From an uncultured Acidobacteriota bacterium (GTDB lineage: Bacteria > Acidobacteriota > Vicinamibacteria > Vicinamibacterales > CAVVIG01): a stretch of 64,000 nt of DNA. The notes under the pieces are model-generated. The model saw nothing but the letters and a program-made list of their open reading frames with translations. It was not told where the DNA came from and did no database searches. The stretch covers positions 329,959-393,958 of the forward strand of contig CAVVIG010000001.1 in assembly GCA_963748265.1 (NCBI GenBank), given 5' to 3'. Numbering within the stretch: position 1 is the stretch's first letter; each line of letters begins with the position of its first letter. Of this stretch, positions 52,260-58,995 are shown piece after piece. The position numbers and the translations under genes are program-made.

Positions 52260-53185
52260 CGCCGCAGTCGCTCCCTTCTGTCGCGCAGCGGCTCGGCCTG
52301 AGCGCCAGCGAAGAGGCCATCGCGCGCAGCGTCCTGTACGCGTCGCTCTTCGACTACCCGCTCACCCTTTCCCAGTTGCGGCAGACGCTGATCGAATCGG
52401 CACAGACGCCTACGCAGATCCTCGCGACGTTCGAGCGGAGCGCTCCGCTGCGAGAGCTCGTCGAACATCGCAACGGCTTCTTCTACCCGGCCGGCCGCCA
52501 GGAGCTCGTGGCCGAACGGCGAAGGCGCGAGGGGCGCAGCCGTGCCTTCCTCAAGGCGCACCGGCGGCTGCTGCGGCTGATCGGGGGACTCCCATACGTG
52601 CGGCTCGTCGCCCTCTCGGGCAGCATTGCGCACCTGAATCTCGAGAAAGGCGGCGATCTCGACCTCTTCATCGTCACACGGGGGGCACACGTCTGGAGCA
52701 CGGCGGTCGCCGTGGTGCTCCTGGCGAAGGGTATGCGCCGCCGCCGGACGCTCTGCGCGAACTTCGTCGTGGCAGACACGGCGCTCGCCTTCGCGCAGCA
52801 GGACCTGTTCACCGCAAGCCAGATCGTCGGCCTGAAGCCGCTGGCCGGCGCCGCGACATTCCAGCAGCTCCTCGATGCGAATCCCTTCGTGCGGCGCTTC
52901 TTTCCGAACTTCCACGCGCCGGCGTGCGGTGCGCTGCCCGCGCTCCAGCCGGCCTCGCCTCCACGACGGAAGCGGGCGGCGGAGTGGCTGCTGATGGTCC
53001 CTGCCTGGGGCGTGGAATGGGTGTGCCGGCACGCCTACGGCAGGTACCTCCGCAGGCGCGCGGGCGGATGGGAATCGCCGGATCAGGTGCGGCTCGAACC
53101 GGGCTGTCTGAAGCTGCACACACGCAGCCACCGCAGCACCGTCCTCAACCGGTTCGACGACCTGGTGCGAGCGGCGCTGAAGTAG
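52256..53185 (+). CDS. Uncharacterised protein with Pol-beta-type nucleotidyltransferase motif
   Basis: YASLFDYPLT N-terminus; VALSGSIAHLNLEKGGDLDLFIV (hGS-x10-DhDh); ATGA overlap with flippase. Confidence 0.75.
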   Translation: MTPQSLPSVAQRLGLSASEEAIARSVLYASLFDYPLTLSQLRQTLIESAQTPTQILATFERSAPLRELVEHRNGFFYPAGRQELVAERRRREGRSRAFLKAHRRLLRLIGGLPYVRLVALSGSIAHLNLEKGGDLDLFIVTRGAHVWSTAVAVVLLAKGMRRRRTLCANFVVADTALAFAQQDLFTASQIVGLKPLAGAATFQQLLDANPFVRRFFPNFHAPACGALPALQPASPPRRKRAAEWLLMVPAWGVEWVCRHAYGRYLRRRAGGWESPDQVRLEPGCLKLHTRSHRSTVLNRFDDLVRAALK

Positions 53186-53207
53186 ACACCGCCCGCTGGC
53201 TCGCGCG

Positions 53208-54512
53208 TCAGGACAGGAGCGCTTCGAGCTCGCGGCGCATCACGTCGATCGCCTCATCCTCGGTCGCCGCCGCCCGGGCCAGCCGCGCGAGGCGCTCCGC
53301 CGCGCCCTCACGGCGCCTCAACGTCGCGGCGCCCTCCGGCAGGATCTCGGCGACCATGCCGGCCGCCGCCGTGAAGTTAGTGGCGGGGTCGATCAGGATG
53401 AAGCTGCCGGTTCCGCGGTTCTCGACGTACGGGTCCAGCATCACCGGACGCGCCGTGGAAATGTTTACCGAACCAATCTGATTGAGCGTCAGCGGACGGT
53501 CCACTTCCGCGGTGACCGACCGCGTCGAGTGCTTGAGCAGGTAGATCCGCGACGGATCGAGCGGCCGCTCGTCCATCCAGACGATGTCGGCGCGGAAACG
53601 CTGGGCGACTGCCACCTCACCGATCGTGATCATGTCGCCGCGGCTGATGTCGATCTCGTCGTCGAGCGTCAGCGTGATCGCCTGGCCGGCGTGAGCGGCG
53701 TCGATCTCGCCGTCGTAGGTGACGATCTGCTTCACGCGCGACGACCGGCCGCTCGGCCAGATGTTGACCGTGTCGCCCCGGTGCACGGACCCCGACAGCA
53801 CCTGTCCGGCATACCCGCGGAACTCGTGCGTGGGCCGAAGCACGAGCTGCACCGGGAACCGGAACGGGCGGTCGATCGCGTCGCGCTGCACTTCTACGGT
53901 CTCGAGGAACTCGAGCAAAGACATCCCCTCGAACCAGGGGGTCCGCTCGCTGCGGCCGATGACGTTGTCGCCGTGCAGCGCGCTGATCGGAATCGGGTGC
54001 AGCTGTGCGCCGGCGAGGATCTGCTCGAAGTCGTCGACGATCGTCTCGAACACCGAGCGATCGAAGTCGACGAGATCCATCTTGTTCACCGCCAGGACGT
54101 AGTGGCGGATGCCGAGCAGTTGTGCGATCTGCGCGTGGCGGCGCGACTGCGGGCGGACGCCGTGCCGGGCGTCCACGAGCAGGATGGCGAGGTCGGCCGT
54201 CGACGCCCCGGTGGCCATGTTGCGCGTGTACTGCTCGTGGCCGGGCGTGTCGGCCAGGATGAACTTGCGGCGCGCCGTCGCGAAGTACCGGTACGCCACG
54301 TCGATCGTGATCCCCTGCTCACGCTCCGCCCGCAGGCCGTCGGTGAACAGCGAGAAGTCGATGGCGCCGGCCGAGCGGTTCTTCGAGGCGCGCTGGATCG
54401 AGTGCAGCTGGTCCTCGTACACGGAGCGCGAGTCGTACAGCAGGCGCCCGATCAGCGTGCTCTTCCCATCGTCCACGCTGCCTGCGGTGCAGATGCGGAG
54501 CAGACCCGACAT
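53208..54512 (-). CDS. cysN: Sulfate adenylyltransferase subunit 1 (GTPase), no fused APS kinase
   Basis: TAGSVDDGKSTLIGRLL, AEREQGITIDVAYRYF, DTPGHEQYTRNMATGAS, NKMD. Confidence 0.96.
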   Translation of the reverse strand: MSGLLRICTAGSVDDGKSTLIGRLLYDSRSVYEDQLHSIQRASKNRSAGAIDFSLFTDGLRAEREQGITIDVAYRYFATARRKFILADTPGHEQYTRNMATGASTADLAILLVDARHGVRPQSRRHAQIAQLLGIRHYVLAVNKMDLVDFDRSVFETIVDDFEQILAGAQLHPIPISALHGDNVIGRSERTPWFEGMSLLEFLETVEVQRDAIDRPFRFPVQLVLRPTHEFRGYAGQVLSGSVHRGDTVNIWPSGRSSRVKQIVTYDGEIDAAHAGQAITLTLDDEIDISRGDMITIGEVAVAQRFRADIVWMDERPLDPSRIYLLKHSTRSVTAEVDRPLTLNQIGSVNISTARPVMLDPYVENRGTGSFILIDPATNFTAAAGMVAEILPEGAATLRRREGAAERLARLARAAATEDEAIDVMRRELEALLS

Positions 54513-55468
54513 CAGAAGTAGCCCTCGCGCTTGCGGTCTTCCATGGCGGCTTCAGACGCTCGGTCGTCGGCCCGGGTCGCGCCGCGCTCGGTGATGCGGC
54601 TCGTCGCAACCTCCTCGACGATCTTCTCCACGGTGTCGGCGTCGGACTGCACGGCCGCGGTGCAGGTCATGTCGCCGACCGTGCGGTAACGCACCACCAT
54701 GCGGAGGGTCTTCTCGTCGGCCTGCGGCGGCGTCACCGGCGTGACGGCCATCAGCATGCCGTCCCTCCGGAACACGTCGCGCTCGTGTGCGTAGTAGATG
54801 GACGGCAGTTCCAGACCTTCGCGCGCGATGTACTGCCAGATGTCCACTTCCGTCCAGTTCGAGAGCGGGAACACCCGGATGTGCTCCCCCTTCCGGTGAC
54901 GGGCGTTGTAGAGCGACCAGAGCTCGGGGCGCTGGTTCTTGGGATCCCACTGGCCGAACTCGTCGCGGAACGAGAACACGCGCTCCTTGGCGCGGGCCTT
55001 TTCCTCATCCCGCCGCGCGCCGCCGAACACCGCGTCGAAGCGATGCTCGCGGATGGCGTGCAGCAGCGGCACCGTCTGAATCTGGTTGCGCGAGGCGCGC
55101 GGACCGGTCGGGTCGACGACGAGCCCCTGCGCGATCGCCTCCTCGACGGAGGCCACGACGAGCCTGGCGCCGAGCTCCGCGACGCGGCGGTCGCGATAGT
55201 CCATCACCTCGGGAAAGTTGTGTCCCGTGTCGACGTGCATCAGGGGGAACGGGATGCGCGACGGGAAGAAAGCCTTCTCCGCGGCACGCAGCATCACGAT
55301 CGAGTCCTTGCCGCCCGAGAACAGCAGCACGGGCCGCTCAAACTCGGCGACCACCTCCCGCATGATGTGGATGCTTTCCGCCTCGAGCGCGGCCAGGTGG
55401 TCGTAGCTCGGGGCCACCTCGGAGTGGCCGGTGCGGGTCAGCGGCGATCGGTTGAGGGCTGCAGCCAT
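54512..55468 (-). CDS. cysD: Sulfate adenylyltransferase subunit 2
   Basis: LEAESIHIMREV, LFSGGKDS, HVDTGHNF, GGARRDEEKARAKER, WDPKNQRPELW, MEDRKREGYF. Confidence 0.96.
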   Translation of the reverse strand: MAAALNRSPLTRTGHSEVAPSYDHLAALEAESIHIMREVVAEFERPVLLFSGGKDSIVMLRAAEKAFFPSRIPFPLMHVDTGHNFPEVMDYRDRRVAELGARLVVASVEEAIAQGLVVDPTGPRASRNQIQTVPLLHAIREHRFDAVFGGARRDEEKARAKERVFSFRDEFGQWDPKNQRPELWSLYNARHRKGEHIRVFPLSNWTEVDIWQYIAREGLELPSIYYAHERDVFRRDGMLMAVTPVTPPQADEKTLRMVVRYRTVGDMTCTAAVQSDADTVEKIVEEVATSRITERGATRADDRASEAAMEDRKREGYF

Positions 55469-55483
55469 GGGCATGTCGGCACC

Positions 55484-55518
55484 AAAAACAAAAGCCCGGG
55501 GTGGGTCCCCGGGCTTTT
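55484..55518 (-). terminator. Intrinsic terminator in the cysD leader (attenuator)
   Basis: Minus strand AAAAGCCCGGGG-accca-CCCCGGGCTTTT-GTTTTT: perfect 12-bp stem plus U tract, about 15 nt upstream of the cysD start. Confidence 0.9.
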
Positions 55519-55544
55519 CGGTCTGTGGCTTCTGAAGCTCGTGT

Positions 55545-55646
55545 TCAGCAGATGTCTCGAAGCATGGCCAGACGACCGTTCGGCGCGGGACCCTGACGGC
55601 CCGTACAACAACACGCGCAGCAACAGACGGCGGCCTTCTGTGACAT
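55545..55646 (-). CDS. Cys-rich leader peptide of cysDN, 33 aa: MSQKAAVCCCACCCTGRQGPAPNGRLAMLRDIC
   Basis: ATG 55646, TGT TGC TGC GCG TGT TGT TGT at 55625-55605, TGA 55547-55545; lies between promoter and terminator. Confidence 0.85.
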   Translation of the reverse strand: MSQKAAVCCCACCCTGRQGPAPNGRLAMLRDIC

Positions 55647-55657
55647 CAACGTATAGA

Positions 55658-55687
55658 TATGTATCAACTTACGGGCGTCGAAGTCAA
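55658..55687 (-). promoter_or_regulatory. Putative sigma70 promoter of the cysDN leader
   Basis: TTGACT (55687-55682), 18 nt, TGn-TACATA (55663-55658) in a locally AT-rich patch; -10 imperfect. Confidence 0.55.
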
Positions 55688-55698
55688 CTGGAGCCGTG

Positions 55699-56689
55699 TC
55701 AGTCGGGCTGGGTGGCCCTCATGCCGACGTACCGGTGGGCCACCTGCTCGTCCGCGTCGATGACGGCAAAGAAGCGATACAGCAGCCAGGCGTCCAGCAC
55801 AATCACCCCCGCCAGCACGAGGTAAGCCTCGTTTCCGGGCACGATGTGCAGGTCGCGCAGCAGCTTGGAGAGGCCGAAGGCGACGACCCAGGCGTCGAAA
55901 CTCATGCAGATACGCCGGAACGTCTCGGGCCGCATCCGCTGGATGATCATGGCGCCAATCGGCACACCAACCGCCACGCTGGGGACGATCCAGGGCACCA
56001 GCGCGAAGCTGGGCGCCGCAAACAGGCCGACATACCAGTAGGCGACCGCCGTCATCGACGACTCCGCCAGCCGCACGACGCCGAGCGCCGCGCGGAACTC
56101 GCGCTTCTCCAGCCCCTGGTTGTTGAGCGCGATCGCCAGCGGCGGACCTGAAATGGTCGTCACCGAGGTACAGGACCCCGACGCCTGCGCCGAACACGAG
56201 GCCGGCGCTCCGCTCGGCCTGGATCGGGCGCCGGAACCCGGCCGCCTGCAGCAGAATCAACGGGAGCAGCACGAGGAACGTGTCGAGCTTCAACCAGTCC
56301 GGGCTCACCCTCGACACCAGCGTCGTCCCCACGAGGACGCCCGGGATCAGCCCGATGATAATCGGAAGGACGCGGCGCCAGACGGAGGGAAGGCTGGCGC
56401 GGTTCACCCAGAGGACGTAGGCGTTCAGCGGCACCTCGATCAGGATGAGCGCCGGGTTGAGCACGCGGTTCGACAGGAACAGCAGTGCGAGCGGCACCGT
56501 GATCGAGGAGAACCCGTAGCCGAGGGCGCCGTTCACCGTCGCGGCGAGCAGCGTGATGCCGCTCAGCCACATCATCTCTGGCGTCACGACCGAGACCTCT
56601 TCGCGTCGCCGGGCAGACGGCCGGGTGCCGTGCCGCCTTCGCCGGGACGCGGCCTGTACGCTGTCAGATTGGGTGCTTTCGGGAATCAT
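55699..56689 (-). CDS. Sulfite exporter TauE/SafE family permease, frameshift near 56165 (alternative start GTG 56587)
   Basis: LLAATVNGALGYGFSSITVP, GVGVLY...TTISGPPLAI, multiple TM helices; SD GGAG 7 nt before ATG 56689. Confidence 0.87.
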
Positions 56690-56691
56690 CA

Positions 56692-56785
56692 CGCTTCTCC
56701 GTCACGGGTGAACGTCGACCAGCCGACTGACTGGCCTGGAGAAGCGGAGCAACCTGGGGGTTGGAACTATCTGAGGGTGCTTCTC
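56692..56785 (-). promoter_or_regulatory. SD-sequestering switch in the tauE leader
   Basis: Anti-SD CGCTTCTCC (56746-56738) is the perfect complement of SD GGAGAAGCG (56700-56692); competing GAGAAGC (56785-56779) overlaps the leader stop codon. Confidence 0.7.
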
Positions 56786-56879
56786 ACCAGCCGATCGTCG
56801 GCCCGATACACGCGCAGCGACACGCCAGCGCGCAACAGGGACAACAACAGCTCAGGTTCGAAGCGATCACTTCCGGCAT
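56784..56879 (-). CDS. Cys-rich leader peptide of tauE, 31 aa: MPEVIASNLSCCCPCCALACRCACIGPTIGW (possibly leaderless from GTG 56870)
   Basis: ATG 56879 or GTG 56870; TGT TGT TGT CCC TGT TGC ... TGT CGC TGC GCG TGT (8 Cys); TGA 56786-56784. Confidence 0.82.
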   Translation of the reverse strand: MPEVIASNLSCCCPCCALACRCACIGPTIGW

Positions 56880-56907
56880 TGTTGGCTAGGACGCGCTGGC
56901 AAGTCAA
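56878..56907 (-). promoter_or_regulatory. Putative sigma70 promoter of the tauE leader
   Basis: TTGACT (56907-56902), 18 nt, AACAAT (56883-56878), 7 nt, GTG; same TTGACTT -35 as the cysD leader promoter. Confidence 0.55.
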
Positions 56908-56909
56908 GC

Positions 56910-56924
56910 TGGCACCCCGCTTGC
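56910..56924 (+). promoter_or_regulatory. Sigma54 (-24/-12) promoter upstream of wzm-wzt
   Basis: TGGCAC-CCCGC-TTGC matches the consensus TGGCAC-N5-TTGC. Confidence 0.6.
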
Positions 56925-56953
56925 GAACTGAGCTTCACGCCAGCGAGGGTGTC

Positions 56954-57811
56954 CTGATTCCAGTCAGCAACCGGCCCGTCACGCGCTTCCAACCCGCGTC
57001 CGCGGGGGCGATCCGCCCGCTGGCGGCGCTCGCCCGCCTCGCCCGGTTCCAGGATCTGCTGCTGACGCTCAGCCTGCATCGCATCAGGGTCCGGTACAAG
57101 CAGTCGCGCCTGGGCATCGCATGGGCGGTGCTGCAACCGCTGGCCATCATGCTCGCTTTTTCACTCGTCTTCGCGCTGCTCGGCGGCGCGCCGAGCAACG
57201 GCGTCCCCTACGCGCTGTTTGCCTACGCGGGGCTGGTGCCGTGGACCGCGTTCGCCTCCGGCCTTTCGAGCGCCACGACGTCGCTCACCGGCCACGCGGC
57301 GCTGCTCACCAAGGTCTCGTTCCCGCGCGAGATTCTGCCGATCACCTACGTGATTGCCGCGATGGTGGACGCCGCCATTGCCTGCCTCCCGCTCGGTCTC
57401 CTGATGGCGTGGTACGGCGTTGACGTCACGCCGATGCTGGGATGGGCGGTCGTCGCGCTGCTGCTCCTCGCCGTCTGGCTCCTCGGCACGGGGCTGCTCC
57501 TGGCCGCCCTGCAGGTGCGCCATCGTGACATCGGTCTCGCGATCCCCGTCGTCCTGCAGGTGTGGATGTTCGCCACGCCGATCGTGTACCCGCTGTCGCT
57601 GGCCCAGGCGCGGTTGTCGGGGCCGCTGTTCTGGCTGTATGTCGCGAACCCGATGGCAGGCGTCGCCGACACGTTCCGGCGCGCGACGGTGCTCGGACAG
57701 TCGCCCGACATCCCGACGCTCCTCGCCGGTGCGGTAACCGCCCTCGCGCTCGTTCCCCTGGCCTACGTCTACTTCAAGTACGCCGAGTTCACCATGGCGG
57801 ACGTGGTATGA
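56954..57811 (+). CDS. wzm: ABC-2 polysaccharide exporter permease (start uncertain)
   Basis: [51 protein letters not shown]. Confidence 0.92.
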
Positions 57812-58995
57812 GCGGGGTCATCGATGTCCGCATCGATCACGTCTGGAAGCAGTACCGGCTCGGCACGCGGCGGAACGCACCGACGTTCTGGGCGCTGAAG
57901 GATCTCGACTTCGCTGTCGCGCGCGGAGAGTCGGTTGGCGTCATCGGGCCGAATGGGGCCGGCAAGAGCACGCTGCTCAAGCTGCTCGCCGGCATCACCA
58001 CGCCGACGCAGGGCGAGATCACGATTGACGGGTCGCTGTCGGCACTGATCGAGGTCGGATCCGGGTTCCATCCGGAGCTCACGGGACGGGAGAACGTCTT
58101 CCTGAGCGGCGCCATCCTCGGCATGCGGCGCCGCGACATCGCGAGCCGGCTCGATGCCATCGTGTCGTTCGCCGGCGTCGAACGCTTCGTCGATACGCCG
58201 GTGAAGTGGTACTCGTCAGGCATGTACGTCCGACTCGGCTTCGCCATCGCCGCACATCTCCAGCCGGACATCCTGCTCGTCGACGAGGTCCTCGCGGTCG
58301 GCGACGCCGAATTCCAGGCGCGGTGCCTCCAGCGCATCGACGATTTGAAGCGCCAGGGCGTGACCACGCTGCTGATCTCGCACGACCTCACCGCGGTCGA
58401 ACAGCTCTGCGACCGGGTCGTGCTCCTGGATCGCGGCGAAGCGATCGCAAACGGGGCGCCAGGCGACGTCGTCGCCCTCTACCATCGCCGCGTCATCGCG
58501 GCGCAGAAACACGAAGCGCCCCCGACCGACCCGGCATCGCTTCACAACCTGCTCAAGCTCACGAACCTCACCTTCCACGCGACGTCCAGCGGGGGAAACG
58601 CACGCTTCACGACCGGCGAGCCGCTCGTCGTCCGCCTGCGCTTCTCAGCGTCCGCTGCGCTTCCGGGCGTGCGTTTCGAGGTCGCGTTCCACTCCCCGGA
58701 CGGGCGGACGCTTCACGCGACGATTGCGACCGAGGCCGCGCCGGTGCGCAGCCCCGGTGGCGTGGCGGAGTTCACGGTGCCCGTTCTGCCGCTCCAGTCG
58801 GGTGCGTACCACGTGGGCGCTGTCGCGCGCGACGGCCGGACCGGTCATGCCATCGACTGGTGGGACGGTGGGAGCACGCTGTACGTCGAACGCGGCTCGG
58901 CAACGGCGCCGGGGCTCGTCTTCGTGCCGCACACGTCTCGAGTCATCGAGGGCGTTCCGGACCGCGATCCGGTGTCAGCGTCGCGAGACCGCTGA
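57808..58995 (+). CDS. wzt: ABC polysaccharide exporter ATPase with C-terminal carbohydrate-binding domain
   Basis: [48 protein letters not shown]; Wzt_C-like tail. Confidence 0.93.

Follow-up and report, generated by a model that had tools for sequence, protein, structure and literature searches.

The window analysed here, 64,000 nucleotides (nt) long, comes from an uncultured Acidobacteriota bacterium of the order Vicinamibacterales (assembly GCA_963748265.1, contig CAVVIG010000001.1, positions 329,959 to 393,958) and holds two adjacent units, U1 and U2, in which a short open reading frame (sORF) rich in Cys codons stands in front of sulfur genes. The minus strand carries every gene of both units, with U1 before tauE and U2 before cysDN (Table 1). 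The permease gene tauE was matched by the Pfam family TauE in two frames, and in a tblastn search with an intact TauE of a relative residues 1-140 were aligned in one frame and residues 137-303 in another. A permissive Rfam scan of positions 53000-57200 (E up to 10) returned five matches, all far below the gathering scores and none of them a leader or riboswitch.

Table 1. Coordinates of the features of U1 and U2 in the window, in order along the minus strand (SD, Shine-Dalgarno sequence).
Feature	Position	Strand	Details
U1 promoter	56878..56907	-	TTGACT 56907-56902, 18-nt spacer, AACAAT 56883-56878
U1 candidate Cys sensor sORF	56784..56870	-	GTG 56870, TGA 56786-56784; 28 codons, 8 Cys codons, 6 of them TGT
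U1 region 2	56779..56804	-	sORF 3' end and stop codon, GGGCCGACGATCGGCTGG TGA GAAGC; predicted SD mimic pairing with region 3
U1 region 3	56721..56747	-	anti-SD GCTTCTCC 56745-56738 and GTCGGC 56727-56722
U1 region 4	56692..56700	-	SD GGAGAAGCG; all paired to the anti-SD in the minimum-energy fold
Second small frame (MIPEST...)	56588..56689	-	started by the U1 SD; here in frame with tauE
TauE/SafE-family (TSUP) permease gene, tauE	55699..56587	-	in-frame extension back to 56689; one frameshift near 56168-56178
U2 promoter	55658..55687	-	TTGACT 55687-55682, 18-nt spacer, TACATA 55663-55658; begins 12 nt past the tauE stop
U2 candidate Cys sensor sORF	55545..55649	-	TTG 55649 / ATG 55646, TGA 55547-55545; 33 codons, 7 Cys
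U2 hairpin P1	55583..55602	-	GGGCC gtcag GGTCC and CGCGC; 3' arm with CCCGCGC is region 2, the predicted antiterminator strand
U2 intrinsic terminator	55480..55518	-	12-bp stem with 8 G-C, then T-run; ends a few bases short of the cysD ATG
cysD, sulfate adenylyltransferase subunit 2	54512..55474	-	NF009214, 466 bits (cut-off 413); also TIGR02039
cysN, sulfate adenylyltransferase subunit 1	53208..54512	-	no adenylylsulfate (APS) kinase domain; TIGR02034, 560 bits (cut-off 336)

Both units have a -35 hexamer, an 18-nt spacer, a -10 hexamer and a start codon 7-8 nt further on. An earlier note, which a model had made from the letters alone, described a shared TTGACTT -35 box and an 18-nt spacer; this stands, but from TTGACTT to the annotated ATG it is 21 nt in one unit and 34 nt in the other. 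The U1 promoter is the sole sigma-70-like match in positions 55300-57100, where shuffled sequence gives a mean of 0.1, and the TACATA hexamer of U2 lies below detection by the promoter scanner. The GTG start codon of U1 sits 7 nt past the -10 hexamer, and an alternative in-frame start at ATG 56879 (31 codons) overlaps this hexamer. In U2 the TTG codon sits 8 nt past the -10 hexamer. The U1 sORF encodes the peptide (M)IASNLSCCCPCCALACRCACIGPTIGW, whose first Cys cluster, CCCPCC, forms region 1, and is separated from the SD by a 90-nt spacer. The U2 peptide is MSQKAAVCCCACCCTGRQGPAPNGRLAMLRDIC, which opens MSQKAAVCCCACCCTGRQGP... and contains the codon run TGT TGC TGC GCG TGT TGT TGT at 55625-55605. 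No intrinsic terminator was found in U1 by a terminator scan of the region.

Cys codons make up 8 of the 28 codons in U1 and 7 of the 33 in U2, compared with 0.89% of codons across the genome. TGT accounts for 6 of 8 and 4 of 7 of them, respectively, compared with a share of 17.6% (1706 of 9712) genome-wide, counted over the long open reading frames (ORFs) of the same genome that have a coding signature. The two sORFs have a CCC-x-CC core in common. TTGACTT occurs 93 times in the 5.5-Mb genome, which is about 1.1 copies per 64 kb, and two of the three copies in the window are the U1 and U2 promoters. Sequence and codon counts thus confirm that TTGACTT, the 18-nt spacer, a Cys-rich ORF and strong TGT usage occur in both units, as the earlier note had described.

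Cys-rich ORFs often arise off-frame in GC-rich DNA, and a pair of them could precede sulfur genes by chance; a raw scan of the genome indeed gave 399 frames with at least four Cys in eight residues, mostly off-frame translations of genes. The intergenic Cys-rich ORFs could not be listed cleanly because the GC3-based gene caller covered 60-70% of the genome, and it left 260 noisy Cys-rich candidates. A replacement scan with a local phase-GC filter and TGT ranking yielded 87 candidates, the top few of which were examined closely. One of the candidates, C14:474434, was dropped as it seems to be a low-complexity stretch near the contig end. A cleaner census than by ORF scan was obtained with two covariance models, R1 for the design of U1 (SD class) and R2 for the design of U2 (terminator class). 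They also caught a unit, U5, which with only three Cys had been overlooked by the ORF scan. The models match five loci of the genome with E-values of 1e-34 to 1e-5, the next matches lying above 0.1, and hundreds of homologues precede the same gene families. These results refute a chance origin, to which we give practically no weight, and together with the codon bias they bear out the earlier judgement that chance was unlikely.

R1 found U1 and U4 (contig 14) with E-values of 1e-34 and 8e-27, followed by the next match at 0.17, and R2 found three sites, U2, U3 and U5. U1 precedes tauE and U2 precedes cysDN. U3 precedes an operon for siroheme synthase, uroporphyrinogen methyltransferase and sulfite reductase, U5 a gene for a YeiH-type transporter, and U4 genes for a TonB receptor, a BrxC-like monothiol protein and an ABC-2 transporter. 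The promoter motif recurs in the homologues: of 41 SD-class leaders 32 have an upstream TTGAC, which NACAAT usually follows 18 nt later, and of 111 terminator-class leaders 99 have an upstream TTGAC. Measured from TTGAC where it is present, the distance to the first in-frame start codon is 37-45 nt in 23 of the 32 leaders of the SD class and 36-44 nt in 91 of the 99 of the terminator class. The shared -35 box proposed earlier is therefore found at a matching distance before the start codons of both classes. The sORF start codon falls 0-8 nt past the expected transcription start and has no SD, and from this spacing we infer that the sensor ORFs of both units are leaderless or nearly leaderless.

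U2 and 13 relatives upstream of cysD or a siroheme gene have four features in common: the block TGCGCG TGT TGT TGT, the 5-bp hairpin P1 directly after it, a nearly invariant CCCGCGC, and a terminator with the consensus GCCCGGG...CCCGGGC followed by a T run. The RNAalifold consensus of the class recovers P1 and the terminator. In single-sequence folds the GCGCG before the UGU run pairs with the CGCGC after P1, which places the UGU codons in an internal loop. On an alignment of 127 rows, about 103 of them full-length, all five pairs of P1 show compensatory change with 95.4% of cells paired, and the terminator helix is paired in 98.6% of cells. Pairing over the class amounts to 97.7% of cells, against 11-76% when the strands are slid. 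For four of the five covariation measures none of 500 shuffles reached the observed value, and for pairs changed on both sides 12 of 500 did so.

An antiterminator was not recovered when RNAalifold was applied to a truncated alignment of this class, because the middle of the alignment is poor, and single-sequence folds were used instead. In these folds the footprint of a ribosome stalled at the last Cys codon was masked and the 3' arm of the terminator was omitted. The 3' arm of P1 with CCCGCGC then pairs with the 5' arm of the terminator in all 14 leaders, and in a larger set of 111 leaders (7 not parsed) it does so in 101 of the 104 evaluable ones, with a median z of -2.05 against shuffled upstream sequence. 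These features support U2 as a classical four-region attenuator (1:2 / 2:3 / 3:4) with an intrinsic terminator and an alternative antiterminator predicted from folding.

A run of at least three Cys in eight residues is kept in 110 of the 111 terminator-class leaders, and the other residues of the peptides drift freely and are not conserved. Small Cys-rich peptides exist, and the sORFs could encode functional peptides (metal-binding, redox, or precursors of ribosomally synthesized and post-translationally modified peptides) that are co-expressed with the sulfur genes and do not act as sensors. A search of four of the peptides against NCBIfam (E up to 10) gave one weak match, to a thiazolyl peptide family (E 5.4), which is at chance level, and no other family. 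The first downstream genes include no modification or export genes, each ORF directly precedes a terminator or an SD sequestor, and a peptide with a function of its own does not fit the drift of the non-Cys residues. We regard this explanation as highly improbable.

In the SD class, U1 and seven relatives share the first Cys cluster CTGTTGTTG and the second cluster TGTCGCTGCGCGTGT, followed by GGGCCGACGA..GGCTGG TGA GAAGC, in which the stop codon is invariant inside region 2. About 35 variable bases come next, and then GCTTCTCC and ..CAGTC.GTCGGC. The Cys-rich ORF is kept in about 40 of 51 homologues, and in the better matches of the model it ends C-R-C-A-C-x-G-P-T-x-G-x-stop. The RNAalifold consensus consists of a 29-pair helix (2:3) between the sORF 3' end with the stop region and GCTTCTCC..GTCGGC. 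On 53 aligned matches this helix is paired in 87.5% of cells, against 31-49% with the 3' partner slid. Compensatory change occurs in 21 of the 29 pairs, and none of 500 shuffles reached any of the five measures. Once the SD is part of the folded sequence, U1 has a different minimum-energy fold, in which the Cys cluster is base-paired to the 3' end of the sORF (1:2) and GCTTCTCC to the SD GGAGAAGC (3:4), and eight of the eight SD bases are paired to the anti-SD; region 2 is therefore read as an SD mimic that competes for the anti-SD. An SD-type partner before ATG or GTG was found in 27 of 41 homologues (18 strong, 9 weaker), and regions 2, 3 and 4 change jointly in several lineages, e.g., GAGUG / CUACUC / GGAGUGU and GAGAAC / GUUUCUC / GGAGAAAC. 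In folds of the nascent transcript that end before the SD, helix 1:2 forms in the absence of a ribosome and is replaced by 2:3 when a ribosome is stalled in the first Cys cluster.

Conserved and covarying helices would also be expected if the leaders were ligand- or tRNA-binding switches, i.e., riboswitches or T-box-like elements with an incidental Cys-rich frame, and much of the conservation of the SD-class C-terminal peptide indeed falls in paired bases. Yet no large conserved unpaired pocket is present, Rfam gave no match beyond chance at E up to 10, and the Cys-rich ORF persists in nearly all terminator-class and most SD-class homologues with its start at a fixed distance from the promoter. 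The invariant stop codon of the SD class inside region 2 and the free drift of the non-Cys peptide sequence likewise argue against a switch of this kind, which we consider very unlikely.

In all probability U1 and U2 are leader-peptide attenuators that sense cysteine by way of the ribosome, and each has a sigma-70-type promoter of its own from which it is transcribed. Anatomy, covariation, conservation and gene association all support attenuation of sulfur genes by leader peptides, as proposed in the earlier note. The second part of that proposal, two distinct mechanisms, is also supported, since U2 has a terminator and U1 has none but carries a conserved anti-SD:SD pair together with a covarying competitor helix. 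When charged Cys-tRNA is scarce, the ribosome would stall in the Cys-codon run. This run consists mostly of UGU, a minority codon that is presumably wobble-read by tRNA-Cys and may therefore give a more sensitive sensor. In U2 the stalled ribosome would melt helix 1:2 (GCGCG, UGU run, GGGCC, GGUCC-CGCGC), and the freed GGUCC-CGCGC strand would pair with the 5' arm of the terminator, GCCCGGGG (2:3), so that the terminator (3:4) is blocked and cysDN is transcribed. With ample cysteine, or without translation, 1:2 and 3:4 would form and transcription would end a few bases before cysD. U1 would follow the same design with an SD sequestor in place of the terminator. Its region 2, GGUGAGAAGC, copies the SD GGAGAAGC (region 4), and the anti-SD GCUUCUCC (region 3) is complementary to both. 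If the ribosome stalled in the first Cys cluster, region 2 could capture nascent region 3 and the SD would stay open; with a ribosome at the stop codon, or with none, region 3 would close the SD. U1, U2 and the three further units of the genome would then form a ribosome-run sulfur regulon.

Several results weigh against this proposal. The anatomy, conservation, covariation and gene association of the leaders are direct observations, but transcription starts, sORF translation, ribosome stalling and a cysteine response are deduced from sequence. As the alignments used for counting pairs were fitted to the structures of the covariance models, the pair counts lean towards these structures. The shuffle control of the antiterminator is only moderately worse than the native leaders, with a mean of 0.54 of the 5' arm paired compared with a native median of 0.69. 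In the SD class a clear SD partner is missing in 14 of 41 homologues, as judged by a crude duplex search, and helix 1:2 is paired in 70% of cells with no covariation beyond shuffles (67 of 500 reach it). The full-length minimum-energy fold of U1 keeps the SD closed with the ribosome masked at any of the eight Cys codons, and the open state is 8.6-13 kcal/mol less stable. Since the SD of U1 is closed at equilibrium, the SD class must work kinetically, by co-transcriptional folding, or partly through polarity. Finally, the cysH-like and cysK-like genes of the genome have no Cys leader, and therefore other regulators must exist.

The closed SD helix would equally be expected if U1 acted mainly on transcription, with Rho-dependent termination or polarity setting in when translation of the sORF and the second small frame fails, and with the SD:anti-SD helix in a secondary role. 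Rho has been proposed for terminator-less Cys leaders of mycobacteria (PMC1262725), and the layout of several relatives, in which a second small frame separates the SD from tauE, would suit translation-coupled polarity. However, it is the SD itself that is conserved as partner of the anti-SD, and the two change together, helix 2:3 covaries strongly, and the mycobacterial case that was tested is described as translational (10.1101/834739). No Rho-binding feature was seen in U1, although no search was aimed at one. Control of U1 mainly through Rho is therefore, in our estimate, unlikely, and a sequestor opened by the stalled ribosome is preferred for this unit.

The second small frame itself varies among relatives. 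In three of them (G002, G007 and G014) it is a separate ORF of 18-24 codons with its stop at or 2-30 nt before the tauE start, and relative G011 has no such frame. Here it is fused to tauE, which may be caused by translational coupling or by an indel.

The leaders are widespread in the family and the order. R1 matched 42 of 118 genomes and 22 of 43 genera of the family, and 26 of 151 sampled genomes in 7 of 19 families of the order. R2 matched 103 of 118 genomes and 41 of 43 genera of the family. In a sample of 151 genomes of the phylum, R1 was found in three, the genome of the window included, and R2 in six, all of the same order. The leaders are thus not confined to this assembly; presence in this assembly alone is what the earlier note had named as refuting its reading. 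Beyond the order, neither RNA was found in about 140 sampled genomes of the phylum. Among the best 80 cysD loci of named genomes, mostly Actinomycetota, no Cys leader was found before cysD, the five matches being weak and at chance level.

The first genes downstream of the leaders fall into few families. For the terminator class 106 ORFs were evaluated from 111 matches (four without ORF, one duplicate removed): 49 encode a PAPS_reduct protein of the CysD type, 42 NAD_binding_7 (siroheme synthase), four a YeiH-type protein, two TauE, two Porin_O_P, one a peroxiredoxin and one a TonB-type barrel, and five belong to no family. For the SD class 48 ORFs from 51 matches comprise 22 TonB receptors (Plug), 18 TauE, three Porin_O_P, three members of unrelated families, which come from the weakest matches, and two without family. 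U1 itself is missing from this list because the frameshift in tauE defeats the ORF rule. The first gene is sulfur-related in 100 of 106 cases in the terminator class and in 43 of 48 in the SD class, which speaks against a random distribution of the leaders relative to sulfur genes. SD-class leaders precede genes for uptake (TSUP permease, TonB receptor, porins), and terminator-class leaders those for sulfate activation, sulfite reduction and siroheme synthesis. The idea that such leaders can be used to find sulfur genes proved useful, as TonB receptors, OprO/P-type porins and the YeiH-type transporter turned up in this way. Of the genes expected to follow the leaders, sir was found, but cysH and cysK lack a leader in this genome and a sulfate-binding protein (model TIGR00971) gave no match in it, which at 62% completeness by markers is no proof of absence.

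The earlier note had further suggested attenuation in place of a CysB/CymR-type factor. This is partly supported, for CysB as judged with the single model NF009327: the best match in the genome of the window reaches 113 bits compared with a cut-off of 402, and none of the 118 family genomes passes the cut-off, with one near miss at 369.9 bits and a positive E. coli control. A broader proposal would be that a whole order of soil bacteria without a CysB-type regulator uses the ribosome as its main cysteine sensor, through two RNA designs on one leaderless UGU-rich sORF, the translational one for uptake and the transcriptional one for assimilation. The TonB receptors, OprO/P-type porins, TSUP and YeiH-type transporters would then represent an undescribed route for sulfate or organic sulfur across both membranes. 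We put this forward tentatively and rate its chances slightly below even.

In the enterobacterial attenuators trpL, hisL, leuL, thrL and pheL the leader folds as 1:2, 2:3 and 3:4, with the regulatory codons in region 1. U2, U3 and U5 resemble them in that a predicted antiterminator overlaps the 5' arm of a terminator directly before the operon. They differ in that cysteine would be sensed, that the sORF is apparently leaderless and lacks an SD, that the Rfam leader families give no match, and that the regulon also has a translational version. Transcription attenuation by leader peptides is described as a standard model in a study of Mycobacterium smegmatis (Canestrari et al., 2020; 10.1101/834739). 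The same source reports that leaderless polycysteine sORFs free a sequestered ribosome-binding site on cysteine limitation, for which the term ribulon is used, and its authors left open whether other loci are transcriptional. Like Ms5788A and the Cys ribulon described there, the SD class (U1, U4) is predicted to have a leaderless short ORF with a Cys-codon run as first cistron, and several independent loci would form a ribosome-run regulon. Here, however, the phylum is another one, and the targets are a TSUP permease, TonB receptors and porins. A sequence relation to the mycobacterial leaders was not found, neither through NCBIfam for the four peptides nor at the 80 mostly actinobacterial cysD loci. 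The RNA here has four defined regions with a stop-codon region predicted to mimic the SD, and a second class with an intrinsic terminator co-exists with it.

Other known leaders resemble one class each. The uORFC-8-2 motif before cysS of Rhodobacterales is described with conserved Cys codons in the first stem followed by an intrinsic terminator and was proposed as a Cys-tRNA sensor (Brewer et al., 2021; PMC8632094). It is similar to the terminator class in combining a Cys upstream ORF with an intrinsic terminator, but as described it is alphaproteobacterial, has only two tandem Cys codons, mostly UGC, and controls a tRNA synthetase gene at a single locus per genome and not sulfur assimilation or uptake. 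Cys leader peptides were also predicted before cys/cbs operons of Mycobacterium, P. acnes and B. longum (Seliverstov et al., 2005; PMC1262725). These, too, are short ORFs with Cys runs before cysteine-synthesis operons, described without terminators; in the account drawn on here they are actinobacterial and purely predicted, with no RNA switch defined. In the translational attenuation of ermCL and cat a ribosome stalled on the leader remodels the hairpins so that the SD of the following gene becomes free (10.1101/834739), as proposed for the SD class, but there the stalling is described as resulting from drug and nascent peptide and not from a lack of charged tRNA. The literature searched, supplements excluded, gave no report of Cys leader elements of this kind in Acidobacteriota. 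Judged by its sequence the mechanism would be of an established type that here occurs in a new lineage, where it involves new RNA families arranged in two tiers; the SD-sequestering class and the outer-membrane targets are new.

If the proposed mechanism is true, ribosome-run cysteine regulons are not limited to Actinobacteria but occur also in a second soil phylum, which is unrelated to them and poorly studied, and within a single regulon two read-outs, a terminator and a ribosome-binding-site sequestor, arose from one sensor design. It would also explain why no protein regulator of sulfate assimilation is evident. Both covariance models would then tag sulfur-starvation genes in uncultured genomes, and the leaders point to TonB receptors and anion porins of unassigned substrate. 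The preference for UGU in a GC-rich genome leads to the testable idea that sensor sensitivity is tuned by wobble decoding.

Soil metatranscriptome contigs from three libraries (at least 99% match) cover parts of both leaders at 55554-55735, 55400-55609 and 56673-56858. The first bridges the 3' end of tauE and the U2 leader, the last covers U1 from 12 nt past the GTG to the SD, and the 210-nt contig 55400-55609 bridges the U2 sORF, the terminator and the cysD start, which shows neither regulation nor, for certain, RNA. These contigs give no ends, strand or level, account for at most 0.25 of the sampled words, and are a weak hint of leader expression.

Downstream of the TonB receptor gene of U4 lies the gene for the BrxC-type monothiol bacilliredoxin-like protein (L032 4782-5144, G000:C14), also followed by the ABC-2 transporter gene. 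These three genes may form an uptake module for thiols or sulfur compounds. Within this genus CysD proteins share 86-89% identity. Their identity to CysD of other genera of the family is only about 53%, but reaches 67-79% to proteins of Actinomycetota and of some metagenome-assembled genomes of Chloroflexota and Myxococcota; the Cys leader is instead family-wide. A transferred cysDN may have taken the place of the earlier genes behind a resident leader. On the plus strand at 56935-58995, divergent from the U1 promoter, lie genes for polysaccharide export, which encode an ABC-2 permease and a Wzt-type ATPase that carries a Wzt_C domain; they are unrelated to the sulfur units.

Besides tauE (56168-56178), several genes of this assembly (14 contigs, but only 62% marker completeness) are broken into two frames. 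These are the genes for sulfite reductase (L031 4990-6824), homoserine dehydrogenase (L031 3818-4932) and an ABC ATPase (L032 3814-4852) and a cysK-like gene (G000:C9:362981-363802); like tauE, they are intact in relatives. These splits fit indel noise of a long-read assembly rather than gene decay. A repeated sequence, ...YCCCC..C.(L/F)TPLVTPTP with TGC-type Cys codons, was seen at G000:C3:24716-24925(-), C3:99786(+), C3:27507(-), C1:467683(+) and C6:68980(+) and is perhaps not a leader but a repeat element or an RNA gene. Three successive short frames rich in Cys, Pro and Trp (CCPCDCCPCCWPP...) at G000:C10:600800-601006(+) resemble a low-complexity repeat.

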